A stretch of DNA of 24,000 nucleotides, taken from Lentzea pudingi (GTDB lineage: Bacteria > Actinomycetota > Actinomycetes > Mycobacteriales > Pseudonocardiaceae). This document shows positions 3,132 through 22,962 of this stretch, in pieces. A model generated the notes under the pieces. The model worked only from the letters and a program-made list of their open reading frames with translations, did no database searches and was not told where the DNA came from. Numbering within the stretch: the first letter of the stretch is position 1; each line of letters begins with the position of its first letter. Position numbers and translations under genes: made by a program. Location of the stretch: positions 178,480 through 202,479 of the forward strand of contig NZ_BMNC01000004.1 in assembly GCF_014646255.1 (NCBI RefSeq), given 5' to 3'.

Positions 3132-3983
3132 ATGCGTATTGCTCGCACGACTGCGCTCGTGGGCGCGGCAGCACTGCTCATGACCGCACTCGGCGCCACG
3201 CCCGCGTCGGCGTCGGCCGACCAGCCCCGTGTCCACCTGCTGACTTCCGACGGAGTCCTGAGCACCAGGAGCTGGTCGTCCCCGTTGCTGTCCCAGCAGC
3301 GCGTCCGCGTCAGCGGGCTCAAAGCCCGCGACCGGCTGATCGGCATGGACGTGCGGCCCGCGACCCGAGCGTTGTACGCGATCGCTGCCTCTGGCCAGCT
3401 CTACGTCCTCGACCCGCGCACGGGCAAAGCGACCGCGGTGGGCGCGCCCGCCGCGATCACGGGAACGGCCGTGGGCTTCGACTTCAACCCGGCCGTGGAC
3501 CGCATCCGCCTGGTCGCGACCAGCGGCCAGAACCTGCGGCTGCACCCGGACACCGGGGCGGTGGCGGCCGTCGACACACCACTCGCCTATGCCCAGGGAG
3601 ACCGCGCCGAGGGCAGCACTCCGCAGGTTTCCGGCGCCGGCTACACCAACAGCGTCGCCGGTGCGACGTCCACCACCCTCTACGACCTGGACAGCCGCAG
3701 GGACACCCTCGTCACGCAGGGCACGGTCGCGGGCGCGACCCCGGTCGTGTCCCCGAACACCGGACAGCTGTTCACCGTCGGCGGCCTCGGCCTCGACATC
3801 GCCAAGACCAACGGCTTCGACATCGCCACCGTGGGCGGACGCGACTCCGCCATGGCCGCGGTGCAACCCGACTTCTCGTTGCTGGGCGGATCGCTCCTGG
3901 TGAAGGTCAGCCTGACCACCGGCCGCGCCTCGGTCGTCGGCCTCGCCGGAGGTGACGTCGTAGGACTCGCGTTCGCCCGCTGA
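3132..3983 (+). CDS. Secreted DUF4394 domain protein
   Basis: 283 aa. The signal peptide is MRIARTTALVGAAALLMTALGATPASASA. The body contains 'LIGMDVRPATRALYAIAASGQLYVLDPRTGKAT', 'GFDFNPAVDRIRLVATSGQNLRLHPDTG', 'AGYTNSVAGATSTTLYDLDSRRDTLVTQ' and 'NGFDI', the repeated motifs I associate with DUF4394. The SD GGGAGAA precedes the ATG. Confidence 0.8.
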   Translation: MRIARTTALVGAAALLMTALGATPASASADQPRVHLLTSDGVLSTRSWSSPLLSQQRVRVSGLKARDRLIGMDVRPATRALYAIAASGQLYVLDPRTGKATAVGAPAAITGTAVGFDFNPAVDRIRLVATSGQNLRLHPDTGAVAAVDTPLAYAQGDRAEGSTPQVSGAGYTNSVAGATSTTLYDLDSRRDTLVTQGTVAGATPVVSPNTGQLFTVGGLGLDIAKTNGFDIATVGGRDSAMAAVQPDFSLLGGSLLVKVSLTTGRASVVGLAGGDVVGLAFAR

Positions 3984-3995
3984 GCCGGCCGCGAA

Positions 3996-4028
3996 CGGCC
4001 GCCGCGGACTCGAGGCCCGCGGCGGCCG
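3996..4028 (+). terminator. GC-rich hairpin downstream of the DUF4394 gene (candidate intrinsic terminator)
   Basis: CGGCCGCCGCGG (3996-4007) pairs with CCGCGGCGGCCG (4017-4028), giving a 12-bp stem and a 9-nt loop, 13 nt after the stop codon. There is no U-tract, which is common in actinomycetes. Confidence 0.35.
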
Positions 4029-4132
4029 GGGCCCTGATCACTTGCGGGTCGCGGTGGCGGCAGCAGGAAGTTCCGCTCGATCGTGACGCAGGGCAGCCGA
4101 ACCGCCGAGCGGGCGTCGAGCGAACACAGGAA

Positions 4133-4618
4133 GTGAGGACCGTGCTCCCGAACGACCAGCCCGGCGACGAACCGGGACTCCTCTCGCAGGAGCTGGACCT
4201 GGACCGTCCGAGACCGTCGATCGCGGCGGTCAGGGACTGGACCAGGGACGGGCTGAGCGGCCTGGACGAAGACGTCCTGGAGGACGTCGTGCTGGTGATC
4301 AACGAGCTGGTGAGCAACGCGTTCGACCACGGCCTGCCCCCGCGCCGGATCAGGCTGCACCGGTCCAGCGATCTCCGCCTGGTCCGGGTGGAGGTCGACG
4401 ACGCCTCGCTCGACACGCCGGTCGTGGGCGCCTCACGCCTCAACGCCGACCGCGGCCGGGGATTGATCATCGTCGATCGGCTGGTCAAGGGGTGGGGGGT
4501 CGTGGACCAGCCGGCCGGCAAGACCGTCTGGGCGGAGGTCGACGCGGTGCTTCCAGTAGGTCGCGACGAGCCTTCTCGACACGATCACCCGACGCTGACC
4601 GCCCGCAGCGTGTCATAG
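4133..4618 (+). CDS. RsbW/SpoIIAB-like anti-sigma factor / serine kinase (HATPase_c only)
   Basis: 161 aa. The N-box is 'VVLVINELVSNAFDHG', followed by 'RLVRVEVDDAS' and the G-box-like 'DRGRGLIIVDRLVKGWGV...GKTVWAEV'. An in-frame alternative GTG is at 4142. Confidence 0.8.
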   Translation: MRTVLPNDQPGDEPGLLSQELDLDRPRPSIAAVRDWTRDGLSGLDEDVLEDVVLVINELVSNAFDHGLPPRRIRLHRSSDLRLVRVEVDDASLDTPVVGASRLNADRGRGLIIVDRLVKGWGVVDQPAGKTVWAEVDAVLPVGRDEPSRHDHPTLTARSVS

Positions 4619-4748
4619 AGCGGACGCGGGTCGGCTGGGCCGTGGCCGCGCGGCGGGCAGTCCGGCAGCGGTCGAGCTCGGCGTTGATCATGTGCGGCCG
4701 CGTGGCAGCTCTTACGCTCGGAACGCGTCCTGTCGCACTGAGGATCGA

Positions 4749-5162
4749 ATGTCGTTGCCGAGCAGAAGGCCAGGAACTCCGATGGACCCCACAGTTCGGG
4801 CCGCGTCGGTCACCGTCAGCGCAGCCGAGCACTCCGACGTGCTGGTCGTGCGGCTGTCCGGCGACCTGGACGCCGAGTCCGCCGTCGCGGCGCAGGCCGC
4901 GCTGGTCGAGATGACCGACGGGCTGATCCCGCCCGCACGGGTCGTCCTCGACCTGACAGCGGTGGACCTGCTGTCAGCAGCCGGTGTCCGCGTTCTGCAA
5001 GGCCTCGTCGGCACGTTCGCCGAGCGGAACGTCGGTGTTCGTCTCGCGGCGGACCCGGACAGCCTCGTGCACTCGATGGTGAGGCTTGCTCTGCAGGACC
5101 ACGGAATCGGTGTTCACACCAGCGTGTCAGACGCCCTCCGTGCCAGGTGTTCAGGCAGGTGA
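4749..5162 (+). CDS. STAS-domain anti-sigma-factor antagonist (RsbV/SpoIIAA-like)
   Basis: Track ORF 4692..5162. The STAS core is 'VLVVRLSGDLDAESAVAAQAAL...RVVLDLTAVDLLSAAGVRVLQGL...VGVRLAADPDSLVHSMVRLALQD'. ATG 4749 is preceded by GAGGA, and ATG 4782 is preceded by AGGAA; either could be the start. Confidence 0.8.
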   Translation: MSLPSRRPGTPMDPTVRAASVTVSAAEHSDVLVVRLSGDLDAESAVAAQAALVEMTDGLIPPARVVLDLTAVDLLSAAGVRVLQGLVGTFAERNVGVRLAADPDSLVHSMVRLALQDHGIGVHTSVSDALRARCSGR

Positions 5163-7115
5163 CCACGGCAGGTCGACGAGATCGAGGACGAAGGCCGCCG
5201 GACTGCCGCGGTGGGCGATCAACACCGGTTCGTGGTGATGTGCGGCGAGTTGCCCGGCGAGGTCGTAGAGGATCCGCACGCCCGCGCTGAGCAGGTGGGA
5301 GACCTCGGACAGGTCGACGGTCAGGGGCAGCACGCCGCCTCGGGAGGCGAGGAACAGGTGGCGTGCGAACTCGGTCGAGGTCATCGCGTCCACTGGGCCG
5401 TGCACGCGTACGACCGCCGTGTCCGGGCCTTCCACCGTCTCGACGCGGAACGCCGGGGAGGGCTCCTCGTGCGAGGCGTCGGGGCTCGTGCCGGAGGCGA
5501 GCATCGGGGGTTGGCGGATGCGGTGCCGGAAGGTCACCGTGGTGCCGCGCGCGCCTGGTGGCTCGCCGGCGCGTTGCGGGGGATGGGTGACGGTGACCTC
5601 GTCGACGAGTTGCTGGCACAGCATCAGGCCACGTCCTCTGTCGGTGCTGCCGGGGTCCGCCGCACGCCAGCGGCCCTCGTCGCCGACGCGGAGTTCGCAG
5701 ATGCCGTCGGGTGTCAGCTGTGCGGTGATCAGGACGGTGCCCTGCCGGCCTGGCGGGTAGGCGTGTTCGGCCGTGTTGGTGGTCGCTTCGCCGACGGCGA
5801 ACTCGAGGACCTCCCGGTCTCGTCGGCCCGCGTTGACGCCGGCCAGCCAGTCCCGGATCTCGCGCCGGGCGAGAGCCAGGTTGGAGAGCGTGCTGGCGAA
5901 CCGCACCGACAGCGGTGGCACCGGCTCGGCCAGGCGCTGGACCGCGAGGGTGGTGACGTCGTCGCGGTAGCCGGTGCGGGTGAGCAGGTCGATGGTGAGC
6001 CGGCAGACTCGTTCGACCGCCTGATCAGTCTCGGTGTGGGGCAGCACGCGGTTCATCGCGGCGTCCGCAGCCAGCGTGGCGAGTTCGACAGCGGCTTCGC
6101 CCGGTGTGCGGCCGGGCCGTTCGACCAAGCCGTCTGAGTACAGCAGGACCAGGTCGTCGGGGGCGAGGCGAGCAGTGGACAGAGCGGGGGAGCGGCCCAC
6201 ACCGAGTGGCCCGCTCGTCGGACCGCTCAGGAACTCGGTGGTGCCGTCCGCTCGGACCACGAGCGGCGGTGGGTGGCCGCACGAGCTGTAGGACAACTCT
6301 CCTGTCCGCGGATCGAGCTTGACCACCGCGAGTGTGGCGGCGTGCAGGGCCCGGTGACCCGCGGCGAAGGAATTGGTCTGCTCGAGCGCGCTGAGCAGGT
6401 CGTCGTTGGTGTGCAACAGGAACGCCAGGACCGTGCGCAGCTGGCCCATCGCCGCCGACGCGGTGACGCCGCTTCCCGCGACGTCACCCACCGCCAGGAC
6501 GACGGCGCCGTCCTTCAGCGGGATGGCGTCGAACCAGTCACCTCCGGCGGTGGGGCCGTGCTCGCCGGCCAGGTACCTCGCGGCGATCCTGGCCTGCGGC
6601 AGCACCGGCAGCGATGTCGGCAACAACGCGGCTTGCAGCTCCGCGACCCCACGGCCGCGCCGATCCCGGACCTGCTCGGTGACGTCGACGGCGTACGCCG
6701 AAACGCCGCGAACCGCCCCGTCGTCGTGGAAGTACGGCTCCATCACGAGATCGACGAAGGCCTCCACCGGCCTACCGGCGGCACGATCGACCTGGACACC
6801 CCACTCACCGACCGTGTGCGGCTCTCCTGTGACGTAGACCCGGTCGATCCCGGCCTGGACTCGTCGGCCCTCCAACCCCGGCAGCAGCTCACGGGCCGCC
6901 AGGCCCACGGGTTCGGAGACCCCGGCGAATCTGCGGAAGGCTTCGTTCGCCGCGACCAGCCGCTGCTCAGGCCCTTCCCAGGCGGCGAGCGCCGGCGACG
7001 ACTCGTCGAACCGGTCACGCACGACGTGCGGATCGCCGACGCGCCGCAAGTGCGTGGCGTCGTCGCGCCGCGATTCCGGTCCCATATCCGCTAGACGTAC
7101 CCAGCCTCGCGTCAC
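5151..7115 (-). CDS. Multidomain partner-switching protein: PAS - PP2C/SpoIIE phosphatase - RsbW-like HATPase - STAS (Rv1364c-type architecture)
   Basis: 654 aa. The N-terminus is PAS-like (ALAAWEGPEQRLVAANEAFRRFAG...). PP2C motifs are 'GGDWFDAIPL...LAVGDVAGSGVTASAAMGQLR', 'LLYSDGLVE' and 'YRDDVTTLAVQRL'. The kinase N-box is 'EFAVGEATTNTAEHAY', followed by 'DRGRGLMLCQQLVDEV'. The C-terminal STAS is 'AVVRVHGPVDAMTSTEFARHL...LTVDLSEVSHLLSAGVRILYDL'. An alternative start is the ATG at 7085. Confidence 0.9.
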   Translation of the reverse strand: MTRGWVRLADMGPESRRDDATHLRRVGDPHVVRDRFDESSPALAAWEGPEQRLVAANEAFRRFAGVSEPVGLAARELLPGLEGRRVQAGIDRVYVTGEPHTVGEWGVQVDRAAGRPVEAFVDLVMEPYFHDDGAVRGVSAYAVDVTEQVRDRRGRGVAELQAALLPTSLPVLPQARIAARYLAGEHGPTAGGDWFDAIPLKDGAVVLAVGDVAGSGVTASAAMGQLRTVLAFLLHTNDDLLSALEQTNSFAAGHRALHAATLAVVKLDPRTGELSYSSCGHPPPLVVRADGTTEFLSGPTSGPLGVGRSPALSTARLAPDDLVLLYSDGLVERPGRTPGEAAVELATLAADAAMNRVLPHTETDQAVERVCRLTIDLLTRTGYRDDVTTLAVQRLAEPVPPLSVRFASTLSNLALARREIRDWLAGVNAGRRDREVLEFAVGEATTNTAEHAYPPGRQGTVLITAQLTPDGICELRVGDEGRWRAADPGSTDRGRGLMLCQQLVDEVTVTHPPQRAGEPPGARGTTVTFRHRIRQPPMLASGTSPDASHEEPSPAFRVETVEGPDTAVVRVHGPVDAMTSTEFARHLFLASRGGVLPLTVDLSEVSHLLSAGVRILYDLAGQLAAHHHEPVLIAHRGSPAAFVLDLVDLPWSPA

Positions 7116-7124
7116 CTATGCGTG

Positions 7125-8699
7125 TCAGTCGCTGCCCTGATGGTCAGGGCGCGCGGACGCGGCACGATCGACGCGCTCGTACACCGCCAGCACCTCCTGG
7201 CCGAGCTTGTCACGCGCGTAGCGCGCCATCACACGGTCACGCGCGGCGATGCCCAACTCCTCCCTCAGCGTCTGGTCGGCGAGCAACCGCCGGAGCGTCC
7301 GAGCCAGAACACGAGGTTCACGTGGCGGTACGTGCAGGCCGGTGATGTTGTGCACGACGATGTCCTCCAGCGCGCCCACCGCGGTGGCGACCACCGGGAC
7401 ACCACACGCCATGGCCTGCAGAGCCACCAGGCCATACGGTTCGGCGGTGGGTACGCAGACCACGACGTCGGCGGAACGCAACAAGACGGGCATGCGGGCA
7501 CGGGGGACTTCGCCGGCGAACGTGACCCGGTCCCGGACCCCCAGGTCGTGTGCGAGCTCGCGCAGCTCCTGAGCGACCGTGCTGGACCTCGGGTTGTCTC
7601 CCGCGATCACCAGCTCGACGGTCTCGAGCGCGGGCAGGCACGCGATGATGTCCGCGAAATCGGTGCCGCGAAAGAATTTCCCGACGGTGACGAGACGTTG
7701 CAGCGCTCCCCGGGCGGCGACCGGGCCGTCCGGGTGGAAGTGCTCCACGTCGACTCCGGACGGGATCATGGAGACCTGGATCCGGCGCACGCCCTGTCGC
7801 CACATCTCGGAGGCTTCCGGTGAACTGGCCGCCACGACCCATGAGGCCTTGCGCGCGACGAGCCTTTCGACGTCGGCGCGCTGCTGGATCTCCTGCGCAC
7901 TGACCGCGTTGTAGGAGTGCACGACAGGGATCCAGGTCCGGCGAGAACCGATGGCGGCCGCCAGTCCGGACGTCCAGTGGTGCGTGTGCGCGATGTCCGG
8001 CGGACGCGACCTCCAGCGTTGTGCGAGGAACTGCGCGAACTCTTCGAGGTGAGGCACGACCTCGTCCTCGGTGAGCCGGCGGGCAGGCCCTGCCGGCACG
8101 TGCACCACCTCGTACCCGTCCTCGGTGCGGACGCGATCCGGAGCTCGGGGATCGTCCCGCCGGGTGTAGACGACCACTTCGTGCCCGAGGCCGCGCAGGG
8201 CTGCCGCCAGCTGTGCGACGTGCGTCCCCTGCCCGAGATCGTCAGCGAGCGGGCTGGCCTGCTCGGACACCAGGGCGATCCGCATCGACGCCCGTCCGGC
8301 CCTGCGCGCCACGCGGATCGCGTCCGACAGGGTTTCGTGTCGTGAGAAGTTTTCAGCCAACCCGGCGACCTGAAGCGTTCGCGTGATGTGCGCTCCAGGC
8401 GTGACGAGATGAAGCGGGATGTCACGGCTCCGCGCGTGCTGTTGGATTTCCATGAGCGCGTTGATGCCGGACGAACTGAAGTAGGACACCTGGCCGAGGT
8501 CGACGACGACGGCGTGGGGACACGTCTCCACCTGAGCCGCCAGCTCCGCGACCAGCGCGGGAGCCGTGCTCAGGTCGACCTCTCCCGCAACGGAAACGAT
8601 CGATATCCCGCCATCGAGTGTCGTGCCCACCGACCAATCCTCGGGCACGTCGAAAAGAGGGTCCCGCATCTCGATCGCTCCCTTGTGCCGGGACGTCAT
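7125..8699 (-). CDS. STAS domain fused to a GT4-family (GT-B, MshA/PimA-like) glycosyltransferase
   Basis: 524 aa. The STAS domain (about aa 20-125) reads 'ISIVSVAGEVDLSTAPALVAEL...AVVVDLGQVSYFSSSGINALMEI...IPLHLVTPGAHITRTLQVAGL'. The GT4 part starts at M139 with 'MRIALVSEQASPLADDLGQGTHVAQLAAALRGLGHEV', followed by 'THHWTSGL', 'VTFAGEV', 'ADVVVCVPTAEPYGLVALQAMACGVPVVATAVGALEDIV'. An alternative start is the ATG at 8669, preceded by AAGGGAG. Confidence 0.9.
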   Translation of the reverse strand: MTSRHKGAIEMRDPLFDVPEDWSVGTTLDGGISIVSVAGEVDLSTAPALVAELAAQVETCPHAVVVDLGQVSYFSSSGINALMEIQQHARSRDIPLHLVTPGAHITRTLQVAGLAENFSRHETLSDAIRVARRAGRASMRIALVSEQASPLADDLGQGTHVAQLAAALRGLGHEVVVYTRRDDPRAPDRVRTEDGYEVVHVPAGPARRLTEDEVVPHLEEFAQFLAQRWRSRPPDIAHTHHWTSGLAAAIGSRRTWIPVVHSYNAVSAQEIQQRADVERLVARKASWVVAASSPEASEMWRQGVRRIQVSMIPSGVDVEHFHPDGPVAARGALQRLVTVGKFFRGTDFADIIACLPALETVELVIAGDNPRSSTVAQELRELAHDLGVRDRVTFAGEVPRARMPVLLRSADVVVCVPTAEPYGLVALQAMACGVPVVATAVGALEDIVVHNITGLHVPPREPRVLARTLRRLLADQTLREELGIAARDRVMARYARDKLGQEVLAVYERVDRAASARPDHQGSD

Positions 8700-8784
8700 C
8701 GAGCTGAATGCTTAACCCGAGAAGCCGCTGAACGCTACCGACCGTAGCCCCCTCGCAACGCTGCCCACAAGCCGAGAAGTGTGA

Positions 8785-8810
8785 GTTTGACTTTCGCTGA
8801 GAACGGGTAT
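8785..8810 (+). promoter_or_regulatory. SigB/SigF-type promoter: GTTTGA (8785-8790) - N14 - GGGTAT (8805-8810)
   Basis: Read directly. It matches the general-stress sigma consensus (Bacillus SigB GTTTaa-N12-15-GGGtAt; Streptomyces SigB GNNTN14-16GGGTAC/T; mycobacterial SigF GTTT...GGGTAT). It lies about 75 nt upstream of the STAS gene start at 8886 and is oriented toward the STAS and RsbW-like pair. Confidence 0.5.
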
Positions 8811-8840
8811 GTCCACCGACGACCGATATGCTCAGGAAAT

Positions 8841-8854
8841 CTGATCGCGATCAG
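8841..8854. promoter_or_regulatory. Perfect 14-bp palindrome CTGATCGCGATCAG in the STAS gene leader
   Basis: Read directly; it is self-complementary. It lies between the SigB/F-type -10 element and the GTG at 8886. Confidence 0.3.
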
Positions 8855-8885
8855 TTGGCCATTCGGCAGGGAAGAGGCCTTCGGT

Positions 8886-9251
8886 GTGACTGAGCCAGCC
8901 CCGAGCGTGCAGCCGATTTCCGTCGGGATCAGCCAAGTCGGCGACCAGGTGTCGGTGGCGTCCATCGCCGGTGAGATCGACATGCTGACCGAAGCGGTGG
9001 TCCGGGACGCGGTCCGCTGCCAGCTCGCGGCAAAACCGCGCTTGCTCGTGCTGGACCTGACCGAGGTCGGGTTCATGGCGTCGTCCGGGCTCGACCTGAT
9101 CCTGCAGATCCAAGCTCGCGCGCTTGAACAGGGCACTCGCCTCTCCGTGGTCGCGAACCAGGGTTCCGTGCGCCGCCTTCTGAGTGTGAGCGGCGTCGAC
9201 ACCGCCGTGGACCTGCATCACGATCTCGGCTCGGCTCTGCGGTCGTGCTGA
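8886..9251 (+). CDS. STAS-domain anti-sigma-factor antagonist (RsbV/SpoIIAA-like)
   Basis: Track ORF 8781..9251, but its first 35 codons cover the promoter. The GTG at 8886 is preceded by GGAAGAGG. The STAS core is 'VSVASIAGEIDMLTEAVVRDAV...LLVLDLTEVGFMASSGLDLILQI...RLSVVANQGSVRRLLSVSGV', with a canonical phosphorylatable Ser in the 'ASSG' motif. Confidence 0.85.
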   Translation: MTEPAPSVQPISVGISQVGDQVSVASIAGEIDMLTEAVVRDAVRCQLAAKPRLLVLDLTEVGFMASSGLDLILQIQARALEQGTRLSVVANQGSVRRLLSVSGVDTAVDLHHDLGSALRSC

Positions 9252-9392
9252 GTGGCCGGTCAGAATGTGGATCTCGTGATGAGAACTCAACCGAAAACGG
9301 GTTTGGACTCGCTTTGCAGGTGATTGTGGCGAGAACTGGTCACCGTCGTGGTGAGATGCGGTGGATCAGCGAACGTGGAGGCAAGATCGCTC

Positions 9393-9851
9393 GTGACCAT
9401 CGCCGATGAGGACGCCGCGTCATTGGTCGTCGACCTTCCGGTCGAGCGCGAATCGCTGGTGCCCGATGTGCGCCGCGAGGTCGATGCGGCATTGCGCGAC
9501 CTGGGAGAGGATCACCGTTACGACGTGCTCCTCGTCGTGACCGAACTGGTGAGCAACGTCCTGGACCACACGGCCGGCCCCGGCCGGCTTCGAGTTCTTC
9601 GCGGCGACGCTCCCTGCGAGGTCTCGGTGGAAGTCGACGACACGTCGTCCGCGCGGCCGCGTCATGGCCGATCGAGGCTGGGCCCGCACCGCGGCAAGGG
9701 GATGGTGGTCGTGGGCAACGTCTCGAACGACTGGGGGACGAGACCGGGACCGGAGAGCGGTAAGACCGTCTTCGCGGTGATCCGATGTGGCGACGGTGCG
9801 ACGTCGGCCGCCCCATGCGAGCCCTCGGACGGCGTCCACTACGGAGTCTGA
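9393..9851 (+). CDS. RsbW/SpoIIAB-like anti-sigma factor / serine kinase (HATPase_c only)
   Basis: Track ORF 9324..9851 (TTG start). The N-box is 'VLLVVTELVSNVLDHT', followed by 'EVSVEVDDTS' and 'HRGKGMVVVGNVSNDWG...GKTVFAVI'. I prefer the GTG at 9393, with GGAGG 11 nt upstream; GTG 9375 or TTG 9324 are possible. Confidence 0.8.
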   Translation: MTIADEDAASLVVDLPVERESLVPDVRREVDAALRDLGEDHRYDVLLVVTELVSNVLDHTAGPGRLRVLRGDAPCEVSVEVDDTSSARPRHGRSRLGPHRGKGMVVVGNVSNDWGTRPGPESGKTVFAVIRCGDGATSAAPCEPSDGVHYGV

Positions 9852-9931
9852 TGGATGAGCACGACGATCAGAACGACCCAGCTGACCAGAGCGGTCACCA
9901 GGACGATCCTCAGTAGTTTGTTGCTGGACAA
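9839..9931 (-). CDS. Possible 30-aa single-TM hydrophobic peptide (below the ORF-track size cut-off)
   Basis: The reverse complement reads GAGGA-ttcccc-TTG TCC AGC AAC AAA ..., which translates to (M)SSNKLLRIVLVTALVSWVVLIVVLIHQTP*. It has a good SD and spacing and a continuous hydrophobic core. It lies 158 nt downstream of corA on the same strand and overlaps the 3' end of the RsbW-like gene by 13 nt. There is no other support. Confidence 0.25.
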   Translation of the reverse strand: MSSNKLLRIVLVTALVSWVVLIVVLIHQTP

Positions 9932-10089
9932 GGGGAATCCTCGTGGAAATCGGTGGTGGAAGGCGGAGGTTCCACTGCGTGGCCGCCTTGAGGTCGTGAC
10001 CCGGTTACGCTGAAGGCTCCTTCATGCGCCAGAGGCGCACAAGCACGTGGCTGTCGCGTGTTCGGCTGATCCCCCGGGGCACACGCCGA

Positions 10090-11139
10090 TCACAACCACC
10101 GGTTGCGCTTGAACATCCGGTAGAGCACCAGGCACGCGATGAGGATCATCGACAGGACTAGTGGATAGCCGTATCTCCAGCGCAGCTCCGGCATGTGGTC
10201 GAAGTTCATGCCGTAGACGCCGACGACCATCGTGGGCACCGCGATGATCGCGACCCAGGAGGAGATCTTGCGCATGTCGTTGTTCTGCTGCAACGACACC
10301 TTCGCCAGCGTCGCGTTCACGAGGGTGGTGAGCAGTTCGTCGAAACTGACAAGTCGCTCCACCACGATGGTCAGGTGGTCGTTGACGTTGCGGAAGTACG
10401 AGTGCAGCATCTCGGGAACCAGCGGGCCGCAGTGGTCCTCGCTGAGCTTGCGCAGCGGGCCGGTCAGCGGCATGACCGCGCGGCGCAGTTCGGTGAGTTC
10501 CCGTTTGAACAGGTACATCTGTTCCACGCCGATCTCGCTGTGCGGAGCGAACACCGCGGTCTCGATCACGTCGACGTCGCCTTCGAACGCCTCGACGACG
10601 GCGAGGTAGTCGTCGACGACGCGGTCGGCGATGGCGTGCAGCACCACCGCCGGTCCTGCGGCCAGCCGGGCGGGCTGGTCCTCCAGCTCTCTGCGGAGCT
10701 CGCCGAGCGGAGAGTGGTCGCCGTGCCGGACGGTGATGACGTAGTCGCGGCCGAGGAACACCATGATCTCGCCCGATTCGACGATCTCGTTGGCCGTGGT
10801 GGGGGACTCGTGTTCGACGTAGCGCACCGTCTTGAACACGGTGAACAGGTTGTCCGCGTAGAGCTCCAGCTTGGGCCGCTGGTGAGCGTGCACCGCGTCT
10901 TCCACGGCCAGCTCGTGCAGTCCGAACGCTTCGGTCACGTCCCGGATCTGCTCGGCGTCGGGAGCGAAGAGGCCGATCCAGACGAAGCCGGTTCCGCGAT
11001 CGCGCACCTCGGCGACCGCCTCGGCCGGTGACCGGTCGCCCGGCACGCGAGCGCCGTCGACGTAGATGCCGCAGGCCACCACCGGGTCGCGCTCTGCGGG
11101 CAACAGCCCACCTGGACTCACGCCTGCGGAAGTCGTCAT
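10090..11139 (-). CDS. corA: CorA-family Mg2+/Co2+ transporter
   Basis: Track ORF 10090..11169. The C-terminus reads 'ISSWVAIIAVPTMVVGVYGMNFDHMPELRWRYGYPLVLSMILIACLVLYRMFKRNRWL', with the signature YGMN motif between two TM helices. The cytoplasmic N-domain has typical length. ATG 11139 (MTTSAG...) is preceded by GGGAAG. Confidence 0.92.
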   Translation of the reverse strand: MTTSAGVSPGGLLPAERDPVVACGIYVDGARVPGDRSPAEAVAEVRDRGTGFVWIGLFAPDAEQIRDVTEAFGLHELAVEDAVHAHQRPKLELYADNLFTVFKTVRYVEHESPTTANEIVESGEIMVFLGRDYVITVRHGDHSPLGELRRELEDQPARLAAGPAVVLHAIADRVVDDYLAVVEAFEGDVDVIETAVFAPHSEIGVEQMYLFKRELTELRRAVMPLTGPLRKLSEDHCGPLVPEMLHSYFRNVNDHLTIVVERLVSFDELLTTLVNATLAKVSLQQNNDMRKISSWVAIIAVPTMVVGVYGMNFDHMPELRWRYGYPLVLSMILIACLVLYRMFKRNRWL

Positions 11140-11215
11140 AGCGGCGATCTTCCCTCGACAGAAGACCAATCGAACGCCGTCTGGCTATTCTTACGCGATC
11201 CTTACGCCGCGACGA

Positions 11216-13488
11216 TTACGGCAGTTGAACGCCGACGACGCAGGTGTCGTCGTCGGTGTTGGACTCGCCGTGTGCGAGCAGGTGGTCGAGCAGCTCGTCC
11301 AGGTTCGACGCCGGCGTTCGCGCTGCCTCGCACAGGTGGTCCAGGCAGTCGTCGAGCGGAACGTCCCTGCGCTCGACCAGGCCGTCGGTGTACAACAGCA
11401 GGGTGTCACCCGGTTCCAGCTGCAGCTGACCCTCCTCATAGGACGGTTCGGCGAGGGCGCCGAGCAGCACACCGCGCAGCATCGGCAGCAGTTCGGCGTC
11501 GCCGTCGCGGATCAGCACCGGCGGCAGGTGGCCCGCGCGGGCCCAGCGCAGGACGCGGGTGTGCGGATCGTAGAGGCCGCAGATCGCGGTCGCGATGATG
11601 TTGTCGCTGAGGTGGTGCGCCACGAGGTTGAGCCACGTGAGCAGTTGCGCGGGGCCGGCGCCGGTGGCGGCGAGCCCGCGCAGTGCGTTGCGCAGCACCA
11701 CCATGCCAGTCGCGCCCTTGATGCCGTGGCCGGTGATGTCACCGACCGACACGAGGATCTGCTTGGTGGGCAGGACGACGGCGTCGTACCAGTCGCCGCC
11801 GACGAGCTCCTCCTGCGCGGCGGGCCGGTACCGCACCGCCACGCGCAGTCCGAACGCGTCGATCGTGGGGTGTGTCGGCGGCATGATCACTTGCTGGAGC
11901 TGCAACGTGAGCGTGTTGCGCTCCAGGGATTCCTGCTCGGTGATCGCGAGCTGGTCCTGCGTCGCGGACAGCGCGACCTCGGTCCAGTGCTGGGCGGACA
12001 CGTCCTGGTACGCCCCGCGGACGGCGAGCAGTTCGCCCTGTGAGTCGAGCACGGGCTCGGCGATCACCCGCACGTGCCTGGTGACGCCGTCCGGGCGTTG
12101 CAGGCGGAACGCCGTCGACGCCTGCTGCCGGTCCCGCAGGACGTTGTGCACGAACCCGTTGAGCGAGAGGACGTCGTCGGGGTGGGCGTGTGCCGCGATC
12201 TCCGCCAGGGGCACCGGATCGGTGCCGGGTGCGAGCCCGTACAGGGCGTACAACTGGCTGTTCCACATGATCCTGCCGCTGTGACGTTCCTCCTCGAAAC
12301 CACCGACACGGCCGAGTCGCTGCGCGTGTTGCAACAGGTTCGCCAGACGGGCCGTCTCGTCCTGCGCCCTCCACACGACCAGGACCAGCGCACCGTGCCT
12401 GGTGATGCTCACACTGGCCGCGACCGTGAGCGGCACCTCGTCGATGAGCGCCGCGAGGGTCATGCGCTCGGCCCGGAACGATTCGCCGGTGGCGTGCACG
12501 TGCTCGATCTTGTCGAACAGGTTTCCTTCGGCCGAGGCCAGCGGGTAGGCCTCCAGCAGTGACTTGCCCGCGATCGCGGAGCGCGGCCTGCCGGCGAGGT
12601 CGACGAACCCGCGGTTCACGTGGTGCACCCGGAAGTCGGCGATCGTGCCGTCGGGCGAGATCTCCGGTCCGAGCACGAGAGCGGGGTCGAGCAGCCCGTC
12701 GGCGAGGTCGACGAGTTCGGACGGCGCCCGCGCGAGATTCGGTGCCGCGGTGCTGTCGAGGGTGGCGGCGCACAGCTGCGCCAGCGCTTCCACCTGTTTG
12801 TGCACGCTCAGGGACTGGGGCGCGAGCGGAGCAGGCCAGCAGATCTCCAGCACGCCGGCGATCCGCCCGCCGGTCCCGGCGGGGACGGCGACGCGGCCGG
12901 GCAGGCCCGGGCCGATCGACGGCAGGCCTGACTCGTCGAGGTCGACGATCCACACGGCGTCCCGCTCGACCAGCGCGCGGCGGGCGGGAGTCGACACACC
13001 GGGCGGGACGTAGTGCCAGCGGCTCGCCTCGCCCGGCTCGAACCCGGCGTGCCCGGCGAGCGTCAGCGACGCGTCGGAACCCGCTGACCAGATCGCCACC
13101 GCGCTCGCGCCCAGGGGTGCGAGCGCGTGGGTGAACAGGGACTGCGCGACGGCCTGCGTGTCATCGGCGCCCAACGCGCCGCTCTCCGCGGTCCGCAGCC
13201 GGACCGCGGTCGTTCTGCTCGGCTCGTCGGGCACCGCGGTGAGGGTGTCGCCGGACACCTCGTTGATGATCTCCACGGCGAGCGTGAGCTGTGTGATGCC
13301 TGCCTGCTCGGCGAGCAGCGCGAGCTGTTCGGCGGCCTGTGCCGGGCCGCAGCGCAGCCGTTCGACGAGCACGCCTTTGGCGAGTTCCACCAGCGCCCGG
13401 CCGTCCGCGGTGGCCCGCACCTCGTCCATCTCCCTGCTGAGCCGGTCGATCGTGCTCACGAGCCGGTTCACGGCAGGCTGACCGGCGG

Positions 13489-13492
<4 letters not shown>
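11216..13492 (-). CDS. ANTAR - GAF - PAS - PAS - PP2C/SpoIIE phosphatase multidomain protein
   Basis: Track ORF 11216..13519. The N-terminal ANTAR domain is 'VSTIDRLSREMDEVRATADGRALVELAKGVLVERLRCGPAQAAEQLALLAEQAGITQLTLAVEIINEV'. It is followed by a GAF-like region and two PAS-like regions ('LVLGPEISPDGTIADFRVHHVNRGFVDLAG', 'GRIMWNSQLYALYGL...FRLQRPDGVTRHVRVIAEPV'). The C-terminal PP2C reads 'VGGDWYDAVVL...VSVGDITGHGIKGATGMV', 'LLLYTDGLVE', 'DDDTCVVGVQL'. The preferred GTG at 13492 overlaps the upstream TGA (GTGA). Confidence 0.9.
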
Positions 13493-18033
<4,541 letters not shown>

Positions 18034-18164
18034 CCGCACTTCCTCCACTGCCTGGCTGGAACGACGTGGAGGCAGACCTGTGTCTTCAAGTGCACCTCGT
18101 TCGACCATGAGATTACTGGACCCGGGGTGCGTTCCGGACGGCTGGACGACGTCCGGCTCCGTGC

Positions 18165-18953
18165 TCAGGACCGGGTCACGGTGTCGAGCAGGTTCTTCGC
18201 GACGTCACGGAGTTTCGTGTTCTCGTGCTGCGACTGCTCCACGAGCATCTCGAAGGCTTCGTCGGCGTCGCAGGAGTGCACGGCCATCAGGACGCCCTTC
18301 GCCTGGTCGATGACGGCCCGCGACACCAGGGCCTGTTCCAGGTTGGCGATGTGGTCGCTGGTGCGCTTCCAGCGGTGGGCGCTGGCGATCGTGGTCGACG
18401 CCGCCGTCGTGAAGAGCCGCATGAGCCCCTCGTCGAACGGGTCGAAGGCCGCGGCCGTGTAGCTGTAGACGTTGAGCGACCCGAGGTGCTTCTCCTCGCC
18501 GGGCTTCGAAGCCGGCAGCAGAACCGGCACCGACAGGTAGGCCCGGATGCCGTGCTCGCTCGCCGACGCCTCGAACTCCGGCCACTCGTCGAGGTGTTCA
18601 CCGACAACCGCGCGCACGGCCTGCAGAGTACGTGCGGACTCCAGGCACGGACCTCGATCGGCGCTGTACTGCTTCTCGTCGACCTCGTTGAAACGGGCGT
18701 TCGTGGAGGCCGCGGTCCGCGGTTGCGCCAGATCCACCACCGACACCGTCACCGCGTCGGCGTCGGGAATCGCTCTGGCCGCGGTGTCCGCGAGTCTCTG
18801 CAGAGCGGTGTTGAGCGGCTCCTCGCCGGTGAAGGAGTCGCGGAGCACCGTCAGCGCCTCGGTGGTCTCGTCCAGGCGAGCGAGGGCGTCAGGGCGCCCG
18901 CCGTCGCTCGACCCGCTCGAGGAGCGGTCGAACGCGCGCGTTTCATCGGCCAT
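18165..18953 (-). CDS. GAF + ANTAR domain RNA-binding regulator
   Basis: 262 aa. The GAF-like core is 'ALQRLADTAARAIPDADAVTVSVVD...YLSVPVLL...LGSLNVYS'. The C-terminal ANTAR is 'ANLEQALVSRAVIDQAKGVLMAVHSCDADEAFEMLVEQSQHENTKLRDVAKNLLD'. The SD GAAGAGGA lies 7 nt upstream of the ATG. Confidence 0.9.
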   Translation of the reverse strand: MADETRAFDRSSSGSSDGGRPDALARLDETTEALTVLRDSFTGEEPLNTALQRLADTAARAIPDADAVTVSVVDLAQPRTAASTNARFNEVDEKQYSADRGPCLESARTLQAVRAVVGEHLDEWPEFEASASEHGIRAYLSVPVLLPASKPGEEKHLGSLNVYSYTAAAFDPFDEGLMRLFTTAASTTIASAHRWKRTSDHIANLEQALVSRAVIDQAKGVLMAVHSCDADEAFEMLVEQSQHENTKLRDVAKNLLDTVTRS

Positions 18954-19314: not shown

Positions 19315-22074
19315 TCAAAGATCCTGCCCGGTCCGTTCGGGCAGGGCGTCGAGTTGCTTCCGGACGCGCTCCGCCTCCTCGGTCCTGCCTTGCTGCCGGT
19401 AGATCTCCAGCGCCTCCTGCCACACCGCACGCGCCTGGTCGTGCTGGCCGAGCGCGGCGTGCGGCGCGCCCAGTCCGGCCAGGGCCTCCGCGATCCCGTA
19501 GTCGTAGATGAGTTCTCGTTGCAGCGCCAGGGAATGCCGGTAGTGGTCGACGGCCAGCGCGTGGTCGCCGGCGAGGTGGGCGATGTAGCCGAGGCTGTCC
19601 AGCACCCCTGCCTCACCGGACGGGTCGTCGTGCTCGCGGTAGAGCTCCAGAGCGGCCAGGCAGTGCTCACGCGCCACGTCGTGCTGACCGAGCCGGGCGG
19701 CGAACCAGCCGACGCCGTTGAGCGATCCGGCCTCCCAGACCCGGTTGCCGAGCGCGCGGCAGAGCTCCAGGGAACGGACCGAGTGCTCCAAGGCGCGCGC
19801 GTCGTCTCCTTGTTGCTCGTACGCCCTGGCCAGGGCTGTGTGGGTGTGGGCCTGCGCGGTCTGGTCGTGTTGCCGCTCGGCCAGGACGAGAGCGCGCAGG
19901 AGGTGGTGGAGGGCCTGCCGGTGCCGGCCGAGGTCGGCGTTGGCGAGTCCCAGCTGGCGGTGGCCGAGCACGGTGGCGGCCACGTCGGGTCCCTGCTCGC
20001 TCGCGACCAGCCCGGTCTCCCAGGCACGGATCTGGGCGTGGTGGTGTCCGCGGAGCTGGTGGAAGGTGGACAGCGACCACGCCAGCTGCCAGACGGCGCG
20101 GCGCCACCCCAGTGCCGCGGTGGCGTGCTGGGCCGCCAGCAGACAGGCGTGCTCCGCGTCGAACCACGCCATGGCCGCCGCTGTGTCGGGCAACGGCTGA
20201 GGGGTGTGGCTCGGTCCGTCGAGCTCGATGTCCACGCGGTGCGGATACAGGAGGCGATCGGCGGCATGGGCGGTGTGCAGGTAAAAGCCGATCACCCGGC
20301 GCAGCGCCGACTCCCGCGCCTCCCCGTCCAAGGTGCGGTGCGCGACGTCCGCGGCGTAGTGGCGGATCAAGTCGTGCATCCCGTAACGGCCTTCGGCGCC
20401 CTGGCTGATGAGCGACGCCTGTTCGAGACCGCGCAGCGCGGTCCTGGCCTTGGCCTGGGACAGACCGGTCAACGCCGCGGCGCCGGGCAGGCCGATGCCC
20501 GGTCCCGGCGCGATGGCGAGCAGTCCGAGCACCTCGGCCTGCTCACCGGTCAGCGCGGTGTAGGACAACGACAGCACGGCGGGCAGGCTCGCGACGGGGT
20601 CTCCCTCGTCGAGCACGTCCAGCAGGCTTTCGCGCAACTCGGCCGTGAGCGCGGACAGCGACGTCCCGGGACAGGTGTGCACGCGTCCCGCGATGATGCT
20701 CAACGCGAGCGGGTAGCCGCCGCACAGCTCCACCAGTTCATCGGCGGCGTCGTGCTCCGCTTCGACCTGCGCGGCTCCGAGCCTCGCGACGAGCAGGTCC
20801 CGGGACGCGGTGTCGCTGAGGGCGTCGAGGACCAGGTGCCGGGCGCCGTGCCCCGTGGCCAGTCCGGGCATCCGGTTGCGGCTGGTCACCAGCACCGCGC
20901 ACGACGTGCCGCCCGGCAGCAGCGGGGTGACGTGGGCGGTGTCGGCGGCGTTGTCGAGGACGAAGAGCATCCGCCTGTCCGCGACGAGGCTGCGGAACAA
21001 CGCGCTCTGGGTGTGCGGGTCGGCCGGGATGCGGCCGGGCTCGATCCCGAGGGCGTCGAGGAACCCGCGTACGGCAGCGGCAGGGGACAACGCGCCGCCG
21101 TCGGGGCTGAAGCCGCGCAGGTCGACGTGCAGCTGGCCGTCGGGGAACCGATGGGCGTGCTGGTGCGCCCAGTGCAGAGCGAGCCAGGACTTGCCGATAC
21201 CGCCGGAGCCGACGACGGCCATGATGGAGGAGCGGTCCAGGAGGGAGTCCAGGGCGGTCAGCTCGTCCTGACGGCCGAGGAACGGCGCGGGCGTCATCGG
21301 CAGCTGCCGGGGAGTCGCGTTCCGGGACTCGCCGGCGGGAACGTGATCGGCGGTCAGCAACTGCTGGTGCAGGTCCTGCAACGCGGCGCCGGGCTCGGTG
21401 GCGAGCTCCTCGCGCAGGCGCGCCCGGAACCTCCGGTAGAGGTCCAGCGCGTCGCTGGTGCGGCCGGCCTGCCGCAGCGCCAGCATGTGCTGACCCGTCA
21501 CCCGCTCGTCCAACGGCAGCTGTGCGCCGCGTGCGGACAGCACGCCCACCAGCTGAGCACCTCTTCCGCGACGCAGCAGGGCGTCGGCCAGGTCGTGCTC
21601 GGCCTCCAGCCGCTCCTGCGACAGCCTGTCGCGTTCGGCTTCCGCCCACTCGCCGTTCACGCCGGTCAGCGGCTGGCCCTTCCACAGCGCCAGCGCCTCG
21701 TTCCACAGGCTCACCGCCTCGCCGTCCTCATCGCGCGCACGGGCGCACAGTGCGCGGAACTGCTGCAGGTCCGTCACCGGTTCGGTGTCGGCGAGCAGGG
21801 CGTAGCCGCCGGAACGGGACGCGATTCTCACACCGGTCCCCGCCTCGGCCAGCGCTCGGCGCAGCCGGGAGATGTAGCTGTGCAGGACCGTCCGTGACCG
21901 GTGCTCCGCGTCCGCTCCGGAAACCCGCACGACCAGACGGTCCACCTGCACGACTCGGCCCCAGTCGAGGGCGAGCGCGGCCAGTACGCACCGTTGCTTG
22001 GGCGTGCCCAGATCGACCGGTCGCCCGTCGACCTCGGCACCGACCTCGCCCAGCAGGCGAACCACCACTGCCAC
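19315..22074 (-). CDS. AfsR/SARP-family regulator (OmpR-type wHTH + BTAD + NB-ARC ATPase + TPR)
   Basis: 919 aa. The N-terminus 'VVRLLGEVGAEVDGRPVDLGTPKQRCVLAALAL...' is a SARP DNA-binding domain. The BTAD reads 'LWKGQPLTG...ERLEAEHDLADALLRRG...LDERVTGQHMLALRQAGRTSDALDLYRRFRARLREELATEPGAALQDLHQQLL'. The Walker A is 'MAVVGSGGIGKSWLA', followed by 'MLFVLDNA', 'VLVTSR' and 'CGGYPLAL'. The C-terminus holds TPR repeats. The GTG start has GGGGAG 7 nt upstream. Confidence 0.92.
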   Translation of the reverse strand: MAVVVRLLGEVGAEVDGRPVDLGTPKQRCVLAALALDWGRVVQVDRLVVRVSGADAEHRSRTVLHSYISRLRRALAEAGTGVRIASRSGGYALLADTEPVTDLQQFRALCARARDEDGEAVSLWNEALALWKGQPLTGVNGEWAEAERDRLSQERLEAEHDLADALLRRGRGAQLVGVLSARGAQLPLDERVTGQHMLALRQAGRTSDALDLYRRFRARLREELATEPGAALQDLHQQLLTADHVPAGESRNATPRQLPMTPAPFLGRQDELTALDSLLDRSSIMAVVGSGGIGKSWLALHWAHQHAHRFPDGQLHVDLRGFSPDGGALSPAAAVRGFLDALGIEPGRIPADPHTQSALFRSLVADRRMLFVLDNAADTAHVTPLLPGGTSCAVLVTSRNRMPGLATGHGARHLVLDALSDTASRDLLVARLGAAQVEAEHDAADELVELCGGYPLALSIIAGRVHTCPGTSLSALTAELRESLLDVLDEGDPVASLPAVLSLSYTALTGEQAEVLGLLAIAPGPGIGLPGAAALTGLSQAKARTALRGLEQASLISQGAEGRYGMHDLIRHYAADVAHRTLDGEARESALRRVIGFYLHTAHAADRLLYPHRVDIELDGPSHTPQPLPDTAAAMAWFDAEHACLLAAQHATAALGWRRAVWQLAWSLSTFHQLRGHHHAQIRAWETGLVASEQGPDVAATVLGHRQLGLANADLGRHRQALHHLLRALVLAERQHDQTAQAHTHTALARAYEQQGDDARALEHSVRSLELCRALGNRVWEAGSLNGVGWFAARLGQHDVAREHCLAALELYREHDDPSGEAGVLDSLGYIAHLAGDHALAVDHYRHSLALQRELIYDYGIAEALAGLGAPHAALGQHDQARAVWQEALEIYRQQGRTEEAERVRKQLDALPERTGQDL

Positions 22075-22829: not shown

Positions 22830-22962
22830 TGTTGCTCTCCTTGGCTGGCCCTCAGTGGAAATCATTGATTCGTATCCTTTTCGCGGCAGAGGCGAGGATT
22901 CGAACAATGTGAACGTAGCGAATGTGTTCACTCCCGTCCCTGTCCCGAAGTACGGTCTTCGG

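Follow-up and report, generated by a model that had tools for sequence, protein, structure and literature searches.

A stretch of 24,000 nt from Lentzea pudingi (contig NZ_BMNC01000004.1, positions 178,480 to 202,479 of the forward strand; referred to below as the window) contains, at positions 4133-9851, an island of six genes that encode partner-switching modules. Two of these genes lie together on the minus strand: one codes for a STAS domain fused to a glycosyltransferase family 4 (GT4)-like domain and the other for a multidomain regulator of the Rv1364c type. The GT4-like protein was found to be tied to partner switching by three kinds of evidence: its fusion to STAS in Lentzea, a conserved gene neighbourhood and a shared SigB/F-type promoter motif. 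The reading that we favour, with a probability of roughly 0.55, is that these genes together act as an accessory hub of several components in a partner-switching network of the SigB/F type, the sigma factor of which is encoded elsewhere in the L. pudingi genome.

GT4-like genes and partner-switching genes are neighbours in several actinobacterial families

A set of 80 unfused GT4 relatives from species-representative genomes was taken from among the matches listed in a contig search with the alignment of the fused proteins; these matches comprised unfused relatives only, the fused loci of Lentzea not being among them. The neighbourhoods were scanned with iterated STAS, HATPase_c_2 and PP2C profiles, with a similar amount of DNA in each distance zone. 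Partner-switch open reading frames (ORFs) were concentrated close to the GT4 gene: 26 were found within 2.5 kb (16 of the 80 loci) and 16 at 2.5-5 kb (12 loci), but only 5 at 5-7.5 kb and 6 at 7.5-10 kb (4 loci each). The association was seen in at least three, and possibly four, actinobacterial families.

The loci were of two kinds. Glycan-cluster loci carry genes for a GT9 heptosyltransferase, an HldE-like protein and an epimerase and are essentially without partner-switch genes, whereas no glycan genes were found in the partner-switch-associated loci. Domain assignments by Pfam supported the latter in three groups: in Streptosporangium and Nonomuraea, genes for RsbW-like, STAS, GAF-ANTAR and PAS-GAF-PP2C proteins are followed by the GT4 gene; in Dactylosporangium an ANTAR-PP2C gene faces the GT4 gene, and in locus L061 the ANTAR-PP2C gene is divergently adjacent to it; in Micromonospora a STAS-HATPase_c_2 fusion faces the GT4 gene. 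GAF-ANTAR genes stand beside GT4-like genes in L003, L058, L086 and L087, and their products are 30-34% identical to the GAF-ANTAR protein encoded elsewhere in the window (18165-18953, - strand).

In seven Micromonospora loci (L040, L048, L049, L052, L060, L068 and L077) the antagonist and the kinase form one chain, encoded at about 8000-9900 (- strand) divergently from a GT4-like gene whose product is without the essential first Glu of EX7E; an extra stand-alone HATPase_c_2 gene lies some 3-5 kb away in all of them except L077. The glycan-cluster loci, a subset of L007-L085 that includes Mycobacterium, Streptomyces and Arthrobacter, combine the GT9 heptosyltransferase with genes for an HldE-like PfkB plus cytidylyltransferase protein, an epimerase and short-chain dehydrogenases/reductases, and look like a widespread heptose-type glycan locus.

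A single clade of partner-switch-associated GT4s was considered and rejected: in a neighbour-joining tree they fell into separate clades in Pseudonocardiaceae, Streptosporangiaceae and Micromonosporaceae, and the fused copies grouped with other solitary GT4s of Lentzea.

A GT4-like/Rv1364c-like operon with a divergent STAS gene forms the conserved core

When the Rv1364c-like gene was used as the anchor, the nearest orthologues were found in L. kentuckyensis (L086) and Lentzea sp. NEAU-D13 (L087). In both, an unfused GT4-like gene of 381 codons lies directly before the Rv1364c-like gene on the same strand, and a GAF-ANTAR gene lies upstream of the GT4-like gene. L087 carries in addition a divergent STAS gene, the product of which is 57% identical to that of the L. 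pudingi gene at 8886, itself divergent from the STAS-GT4 gene. The conserved core is therefore a STAS gene divergent from a GT4-like/Rv1364c-like operon. In L. pudingi a STAS domain bearing the canonical phosphorylatable serine has been added to the N-terminus of the GT4-like protein, and the two RsbW-like/STAS pairs that flank the core are lineage-specific additions.

SigB/F/G-type sigma genes and promoter motifs are found at related loci

A three-region sigma gene of the SigB/F/G type was found beside the RsbW-like gene of the GT4-like locus in L058, L062 and L063, where STAS, GAF-ANTAR and PAS-GAF-PP2C genes are also present; in L061 the GT4-like gene is followed by the sigma gene. The sigma factors of L058 and L061 scored 272 and 289 bits against the SigB/F/G subfamily model TIGR02980, which has a cutoff of 234. 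These sigma-adjacent GT4-like loci lie in Streptosporangiaceae and Dactylosporangium.

A motif scan of the window detected a SigB/SigF-type promoter-like motif, GTTT-N16-GGGTA, at 8785-8809 (+ strand), 77 bp upstream of the STAS gene at 8886. The SigF promoter of Mycobacterium smegmatis has been quoted as GTTT-N17-GGGTAA (PMC7693655). Exact GTTT/GGGTA motifs matched twice in the window, against 0.05 matches expected, and the match at 8785-8809 is the sole one in the intergenic regions of the island. The motif is also present upstream of the orthologous STAS gene in L087 and of the GAF-ANTAR genes in L003, L086 and L087. Five of the 19 partner-switch-associated loci (L014, L058, L061, L062 and L063; 0.13 expected) have it no more than 90 bp upstream of their GT4-like gene, compared with 2 of 61 glycan-cluster loci.

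Gene content of the island

The G+C content of the window is about 70%, as a result of which raw ORF lists were crowded by spurious frames; genes were chosen by third-position GC and domains were assigned by Pfam scan. An earlier note, made from the DNA sequence alone, had counted four STAS, three RsbW-like (HATPase_c_2) and one PP2C module at 4133-9851, and Pfam returned the same inventory, distributed over six genes. On the plus strand, the gene for stand-alone RsbW-like protein 1 (4133-4618; HATPase_c_2, 41.6 bits, with a match to the NCBIfam RsbA family) precedes that for stand-alone STAS 1 (4749-5162; 47.6 bits). The STAS-GT4 gene and the Rv1364c-type gene (5151-7115) follow on the minus strand. 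The second plus-strand pair consists of stand-alone STAS 2 (8886-9251; 49.1 bits, above the NCBIfam cutoff for anti-sigma antagonists) and RsbW-like protein 2 (9393-9851). The two stand-alone pairs have opposite gene orders and bracket the minus-strand pair, a layout that the earlier note had described correctly.

As a control, flanks at 5-10 kb from 80 actinobacterial loci (702 kb in all) were found to contain 11 partner-switch-type ORFs, or about one per 64 kb; compared with this density, six such genes within 5.7 kb are not a chance occurrence. The arrangement of all six genes, which the earlier note had proposed to look for as a unit in other genomes, was not conserved in related genomes.

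The same note had reported an extracytoplasmic function (ECF) sigma gene at 2443-2997 as the only sigma gene of the window and no gene of the SigB/F type. Both statements were upheld: no relative was found when a SigB/F/G query was compared with the six-frame ORFs of the 24-kb window. The missing sigma gene is ordinary for actinomycetes and by itself unsurprising, since their homologues of RsbW, RsbV and PP2C outnumber those of SigB several-fold (in Streptomyces coelicolor 45, 17 and 44, respectively, against 9 of SigB) and since the characterised anti-sigma genes are often far from their sigma gene, with anti-sigma factors such as RsfA acting on sigma factors encoded elsewhere (PMC8346170).

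STAS-GT4 fusion proteins

The start of the STAS-GT4 gene, previously placed at 8699 (ORF 7125-8699), was corrected to M11 (8669), the start found in 7 of 7 fused homologues and in the NCBI model; the gene is thus 7125-8669 (- strand) and its product, 514 aa long, is 100% identical to a database protein of L. pudingi. Residues 19-117 form the N-terminal STAS domain (60.1 bits), which has the canonical SSSG motif, and the C-terminal part matches Glyco_trans_4_4 and Glycos_transf_1 (92.6 and 108 bits). The fused gene ends 9-39 bp upstream of the Rv1364c-like gene, depending on the start chosen for the latter.

Fused STAS-GT4 proteins were found in only about eight protein clusters, that of the window and seven others, from Lentzea and soil metagenomes. 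The canonical phospho-serine column is occupied by Ser in 7 of 8 members. The genes surrounding the fused copies varied: a STAS gene and a second GT4 gene nearby in L001; a GAF-ANTAR gene before the fused gene and PP2C and GAF-ANTAR genes after it in L003; RsbW-like, PAS-PP2C and DinB genes before it in L004; and TctABC transporter genes before it in L005, a 6-kb contig.

The fused protein of L001 (Lentzea chajnantorensis, 10001-11524) is the only one with Pro at the phospho-serine column (VSLSPCG). Its locus is also the only genomic fused locus without a kinase or PP2C gene in 10 kb, L005 being only a 6-kb contig, and the stand-alone STAS gene and the second, degenerate GT4 gene lie 1.5 kb off.

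The GT4-like domain has a degenerate donor site

An AlphaFold2 model of the STAS-GT4 protein (pLDDT 90.8, pTM 0.80) was compared with known structures using Foldseek, and the best matches were sucrose-phosphate synthase (SPS; 6KIH) and MshA (3C4Q), with a target-normalised TM-score (TMt) of 0.84-0.86. The GT-B fold of the fusion protein is thus predicted to be intact.

Donor-site residues were mapped on alignments to TeSPS, a sucrose-phosphate synthase, and MshA, and were checked against the published mutagenesis of TeSPS. In that enzyme H158 and E331 are essential, their mutation abolishing activity; R249 and R253 bind the terminal phosphate of UDP, and Arg-to-Ala mutants retain reduced activity; E339 binds the ribose (PMC7264703). 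The canonical set of GG loop, H.H, GRxxxxKG and EX7E was complete in 56 of 63 glycan-cluster GT4s, but in none of the 26 GT4s that are fused or associated with partner-switch genes. The window protein has LG, H.H, K...TD and E...Q instead, and the closest 25-30 database homologues, including the GT4s of L086 and L087, are likewise without the canonical donor set. The GG loop, the Arg/Lys clamp and the ribose-binding Glu are conserved nowhere in the fused family or its nearest unfused relatives, while the window protein, like the fused family as a whole, keeps the sugar-contacting His and the first Glu of EX7E. The fused family of Lentzea therefore appears, from these alignments, to have kept the sugar-contacting catalytic pair and lost the nucleotide-diphosphate contacts. 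The first Glu of EX7E is lost in the partner-switch-associated relatives of Micromonosporaceae and Streptosporangiaceae, and the GT4-like relatives of Micromonospora and Streptosporangium are most likely inactive.

Two identities of the GT4 domain were examined and discarded. It scored 141.2 bits against the MshA model TIGR03449, far below the cutoff of 462.5, which makes the JGI name 'D-inositol-3-phosphate glycosyltransferase' given to homologues unreliable, and the donor-site residues differ from those of MshA. TeSPS was the best PDB match (E 3e-45), yet the donor-site residues differ from those of sucrose-phosphate synthase as well. A flat verdict of a catalytically dead protein was also set aside for the fused GT4, in view of the partial activity of the TeSPS Arg-to-Ala mutants and the retention here of the essential His and Glu.

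The Rv1364c-type regulator

The ORF at 5151-7115 (- strand) codes for 654 aa, or 644 aa if translated from the start of the NCBI model (7085), and the protein is 100% identical to a database protein of L. pudingi. It combines PAS_4, a SpoIIE-type PP2C domain (125 bits), a GHKL serine kinase domain (HATPase_c_2, 67.8 bits) and STAS (28.9 bits), in this order, in one polypeptide of about 650 aa. Residues 167-541 matched the phosphatase-kinase structure of M. tuberculosis Rv1364c (PDB 3KE6, E 3.5e-68), and the Rv1364c PAS structure (3K3C) was matched with E 3e-22; the protein is a full-length homologue of Rv1364c. More than 1200 relatives were found at E<=1e-30, and the four-domain architecture was present in 120 of 120 among the matches listed; this architecture is therefore very common.

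Alignment to the Rv1364c phosphatase domain located the PP2C motifs GGDWFD, GDVxG, DG and DD. The kinase domain has the canonical boxes (E..N..H, G1 DEGRW and G2 RGRGL), and the STAS domain has Ser at the canonical column (LSAG). Rv1364c both adds phosphate to its own STAS domain and removes it, and it binds SigF in vitro (PMC7693655, citing Greenstein 2009 and Misra 2019).

Stand-alone STAS and RsbW-like proteins

Alignment of the four STAS modules showed the canonical Ser (that of the DLSxVxF(M/I)DSSG-type motif) in the GT-fused (SSSG), the 8886 (MASSG) and the Rv1364c-like (LSAG) modules. The 4749 module has Ala at this column and Ser one residue earlier (LLSAAG); of the other modules in the window, it is nearest to that of the Rv1364c-like protein (35% identity). 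The closest paralogue of the GT-fused STAS is the 8886 STAS (31% identity, E 3e-15), a similarity that would fit a duplication and a subsequent fusion.

The two stand-alone RsbW-like proteins are 45% identical (E 7e-20). RsbW-like protein 2 scored 26.6 bits against HATPase_c_2, just under the cutoff of 27.4, and was accepted as RsbW-like on account of this identity to its paralogue. Both proteins have an N-box and a G2 box, but the G1 box is without Gly, reading VDDAS in the 4133 protein and VDDTS in the 9393 protein. Their relatives in Lentzea loci L004, L006 and L016 are likewise without the G1 glycine, (D/E)D(A/S/T)S replacing DxGxG/W; the relative in L004 is a close one (E 2e-46) and is encoded beside the STAS-GT4 gene. 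A PDB search with the stand-alone RsbW-like protein gave no significant match, and the ATP site is accordingly read here from motifs. Both may be weak as kinases and exert their effect chiefly through binding. In M. smegmatis, three RsbW homologues act as an anti-sigma factor, as a kinase only and as an antagonist of the anti-sigma factor, respectively (PMC7693655).

Proposed function of the island and alternative explanations

We propose that the PAS-controlled kinase and phosphatase of the Rv1364c-like protein would set the phosphorylation state of the local STAS modules, namely its own, that of the GT4-like protein and the 8886 STAS, possibly with a contribution from an ANTAR-PP2C protein encoded nearby. 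Unphosphorylated STAS modules would capture the RsbW-like proteins which, as the G1-box glycine is missing, may serve mainly as binding partners, either as anti-sigma factors or, like RsbW3 of M. smegmatis, as antagonists of an anti-sigma factor. Capture would free a distant sigma factor of the SigB/F/G family, and this in turn would transcribe at least the STAS(8886)-RsbW2 operon from the GTTT-N16-GGGTA promoter, closing a feedback loop. The GT4-like protein would be a phospho-switchable partner, directly involved in L. pudingi through its own STAS domain. Its GT4-like domain is more likely a ligand- or protein-binding partner, or a regulated enzyme with unusual donor binding, than a standard glycosyltransferase forming the sole output of the module. 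We put forward, more tentatively, that this GT4-derived lineage provides a sugar- or metabolite-sensing input or adaptor to actinobacterial SigB/F networks, the Lentzea fusion then being a sensor plus anti-anti-sigma in one polypeptide.

Several observations weigh against this proposal. The promoter motif is a short consensus, and no SigB/F-type motif was found before the STAS-GT4 operon or the RsbW1-STAS1 pair, relaxed searches included. The second match in the window (GTTT-N18-GGGTA, 12521-12547, + strand) lies inside the coding region of the ANTAR-PP2C gene, on the opposite strand, and is either a chance match or an antisense promoter. The sigma-adjacent GT4-like loci belong to families other than that of Lentzea, and the partner-switch-associated loci of Lentzea and Micromonospora have no sigma gene within 10 kb. 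The sigma search covered the 24-kb window of L. pudingi and detected no SigB/F/G gene there, and all the protein-protein and phosphorylation steps are ones that we infer. The fused GT4 keeps the His and first Glu essential in TeSPS, and may be an active enzyme and a true local output.

Such an output, independent of any sigma factor, was one of two alternatives raised in the earlier note, the other being targets encoded elsewhere. STAS-GT4 would then be an active glycosyltransferase, turned off when the STAS serine is phosphorylated by the Rv1364c-like kinase or an RsbW-like protein and turned on by PP2C. A precedent exists in Anabaena, where control of a STAS-fused sugar transferase is shared by an RsbW-like kinase and a phosphatase of the SpoIIE type (PMC13555669). 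The serine conserved in 7 of the 8 fused proteins, the gene only 9-39 bp from that of a kinase/phosphatase, the PP2C or RsbW-like genes adjoining the fused copies in L003 and L004, the GT-B fold modelled at high confidence and the retained His and Glu (PMC7264703) all fit this explanation. However, the Gly-Gly loop, phosphate clamp and ribose-binding Glu, near-invariant in the glycan-cluster relatives, are unconserved in the fused family and its closest relatives, and the partner-switch relatives of Micromonosporaceae and Streptosporangiaceae are without even the essential Glu. In addition, Pfam revealed no other sugar-biosynthesis or export genes near the island in the window, related loci have SigB/F/G sigma genes and SigB/F-type promoter motifs, and the catalytic fold of the Anabaena enzyme All4160 (Bac_transf) is a different one, which limits the analogy to function. 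We regard a local glycosyltransferase output, for which the precedent is real, as a less likely but serious rival, and favour a target encoded elsewhere on the basis of the promoter motif and the sigma-adjacent homologous loci. The earlier note had also considered a cognate group-3 sigma gene adjacent in relatives, with the window as a rearrangement; this is borne out in part, as sigma genes do stand beside homologous GT4-like loci, but these are in distant families and are not copies of which the island is a rearranged form.

It is improbable that the island is no functional unit and that independent paralogues of abundant signalling families, serving separate pathways, came together by chance. 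Such genes number in the dozens in an actinomycete (PMC8346170), the wider window contains many regulators according to Pfam, and the six-gene arrangement is not conserved. Against this stand the gene density relative to the control flanks, the core conserved in three Lentzea species (L. pudingi, L086 and L087, the divergent STAS being traced in L087), the physical fusion of STAS to the GT4-like domain in eight clusters, and the GT4-like association, which recurs across families and decays with distance. Regulation of the nearby ECF sigma factor by the RsbW-like proteins is more improbable by far. No anti-sigma gene lies downstream of the ECF sigma gene, where a LacI-type regulator gene on the other strand comes next, and RsbW-like gene 1 is only 1.1 kb away; yet a DUF4394 gene separates the sigma gene from RsbW-like gene 1, and in L003, L004, L086 and L087 the GT4-like, Rv1364c-like or RsbW-like relatives are found without an ECF sigma gene. 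To our knowledge, HATPase_c_2 anti-sigma factors bind group-3 sigma factors or, in Chlamydia, sigma-66, and not ECF sigma factors.

Neighbouring genes in the window

Two further genes are possibly associated with the island: that of the GAF-ANTAR protein mentioned above and that of an ANTAR-PAS-PAS-PP2C (SpoIIE) protein (11216-13519, - strand), the latter placing a second PP2C gene 1.4 kb outside the 4133-9851 span. Both belong to an apparent operon at 10090-18953 (- strand) with the order GAF-ANTAR, hybrid kinase, ANTAR-PAS-PAS-PP2C and CorA (10090-11169). The hybrid kinase (13489-18108, 1539 aa) has seven HAMP repeats and GAF, HisKA, HATPase and receiver domains, and its gene overlaps the ANTAR-PAS-PAS-PP2C gene by 31 nt. 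In its layout, with a HAMP-array kinase next to a PAS/PP2C regulator, the operon is reminiscent of osaA/osaC, the osmoadaptation genes of Streptomyces (PMC10117811). An Rfam scan of the window identified no RNA family and no known ANTAR target, and a scan of 3900-10200 for sigma-70 promoters and intrinsic terminators gave none above chance.

A gene for a SARP (BTAD)-NB-ARC-TPR regulator is located at 19315-22074 (- strand). In Lentzea sp. CA-135723 (L088) a SARP-TPR gene coding for 1034 aa (4835-7939) lies directly upstream of the Rv1364c-like orthologue, in the place of the GT4-like gene; a SARP-TPR/Rv1364c-like neighbourhood may be a recurrent association. The ECF sigma gene (- strand) is divergent from a gene for a secreted DUF4394 protein (3132-3983, + strand; Pfam 239 bits) and has no co-transcribed anti-sigma gene. 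At the left edge of the window, a partial ORF (2-337, + strand; third-position GC 0.97) had no Pfam match, and about 900 bp (338-1237) without a convincing coding frame precede the LacI-type regulator gene (1238-2398). The ORF at 22221-22931 (- strand; 236 aa) lies in a patch of lower GC (about 0.66) and has good coding statistics, a predicted signal- or transmembrane-like N-terminal region and no Pfam family.

Comparison with known systems

In actinomycetes, few signalling families are as expanded and as poorly understood as the partner-switching modules, whose inputs and non-sigma outputs are mostly uncharted. In the open-access literature we found no description of GT4-like components of actinobacterial partner switches, and both the fusion of STAS to GT4 and the recurrence, with SigB/F-type modules, of a GT4-like partner that has a degenerate donor site look new. 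Should the GT4-like domain prove to be a sensor or adaptor, it would offer a testable input for SigB/F-type stress signalling and add a component not described before to the circuits by which actinomycetes respond to general and osmotic stress. Should it prove to be an enzyme, it would represent a second, mechanistically distinct partner switch acting directly on glycan or glycoside synthesis.

The closest likeness of the multidomain regulator is to M. tuberculosis Rv1364c, which has the same domain order and size. There, too, extra stand-alone STAS/RsbW-like genes adjoin the regulator, as exemplified by RsfA (Rv1365c), and the sigma gene is outside the locus; Rv1364c and rsfA map away from sigF. 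Unlike its M. tuberculosis counterpart, the Lentzea regulator is co-operonic with a GT4-like gene bearing its own STAS domain and is flanked by two RsbW-like/STAS pairs, and its cognate sigma factor is a putative one. The several RsbW homologues of the island can also be likened to the SigF network of M. smegmatis, in which such homologues have divided roles (PMC7693655).

The SigB-family networks of S. coelicolor (RsbA/RsbB, BldG, PrsI/ArsI and OsaC) resemble the island in their many-to-many switching and in regulators that outnumber the sigma factors, with regulator genes often far from the sigma gene (PMC8346170). OsaC combines an RsbW-like kinase with PAS and PP2C domains, as does the multidomain protein of the window (PMC8346170, PMC10117811). 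For these networks we came across no account of a GT4-like component or of STAS fused to GT4.

The SypA/SypE pair of Vibrio fischeri is described as a STAS protein under the control of a combined RsbW-like kinase and PP2C phosphatase protein, acting on polysaccharide production and not through a known sigma factor (PMC4517449, PMC10120452). SypA is a stand-alone STAS protein, unlike the fused STAS of Lentzea, and SypE has a receiver domain where the Lentzea regulator has PAS. The proteobacterial system is part of a polysaccharide locus of 18 genes, while the Lentzea island has no glycan genes around it.

The fusion itself is best compared with the All4160/HenR/Alr3423 system of Anabaena PCC 7120, in which phosphorylation of STAS by the kinase Alr3423, reversed by the phosphatase HenR, switches a fused Bac_transf polysaccharide enzyme; the STAS plus Bac_transf combination is, according to its authors, essentially cyanobacterial (Mol Microbiol 2026, PMC13555669). 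All4160 and the Lentzea protein both have an N-terminal STAS domain with a phosphorylatable Ser joined to a domain of sugar-transferase type, and both would be expected to be modified by an RsbW-like kinase and a phosphatase of the SpoIIE type. The catalytic folds differ, that of All4160 being Bac_transf (PF02397, a polyprenyl-phosphate sugar-phosphate transferase) and that of the Lentzea fusion a GT-B GT4, and the two fusions are thus of independent origin. The All4160 system needs no sigma factor; the Lentzea GT4, in contrast, has a degenerate donor site and relatives that sit with SigB/F/G sigma genes.

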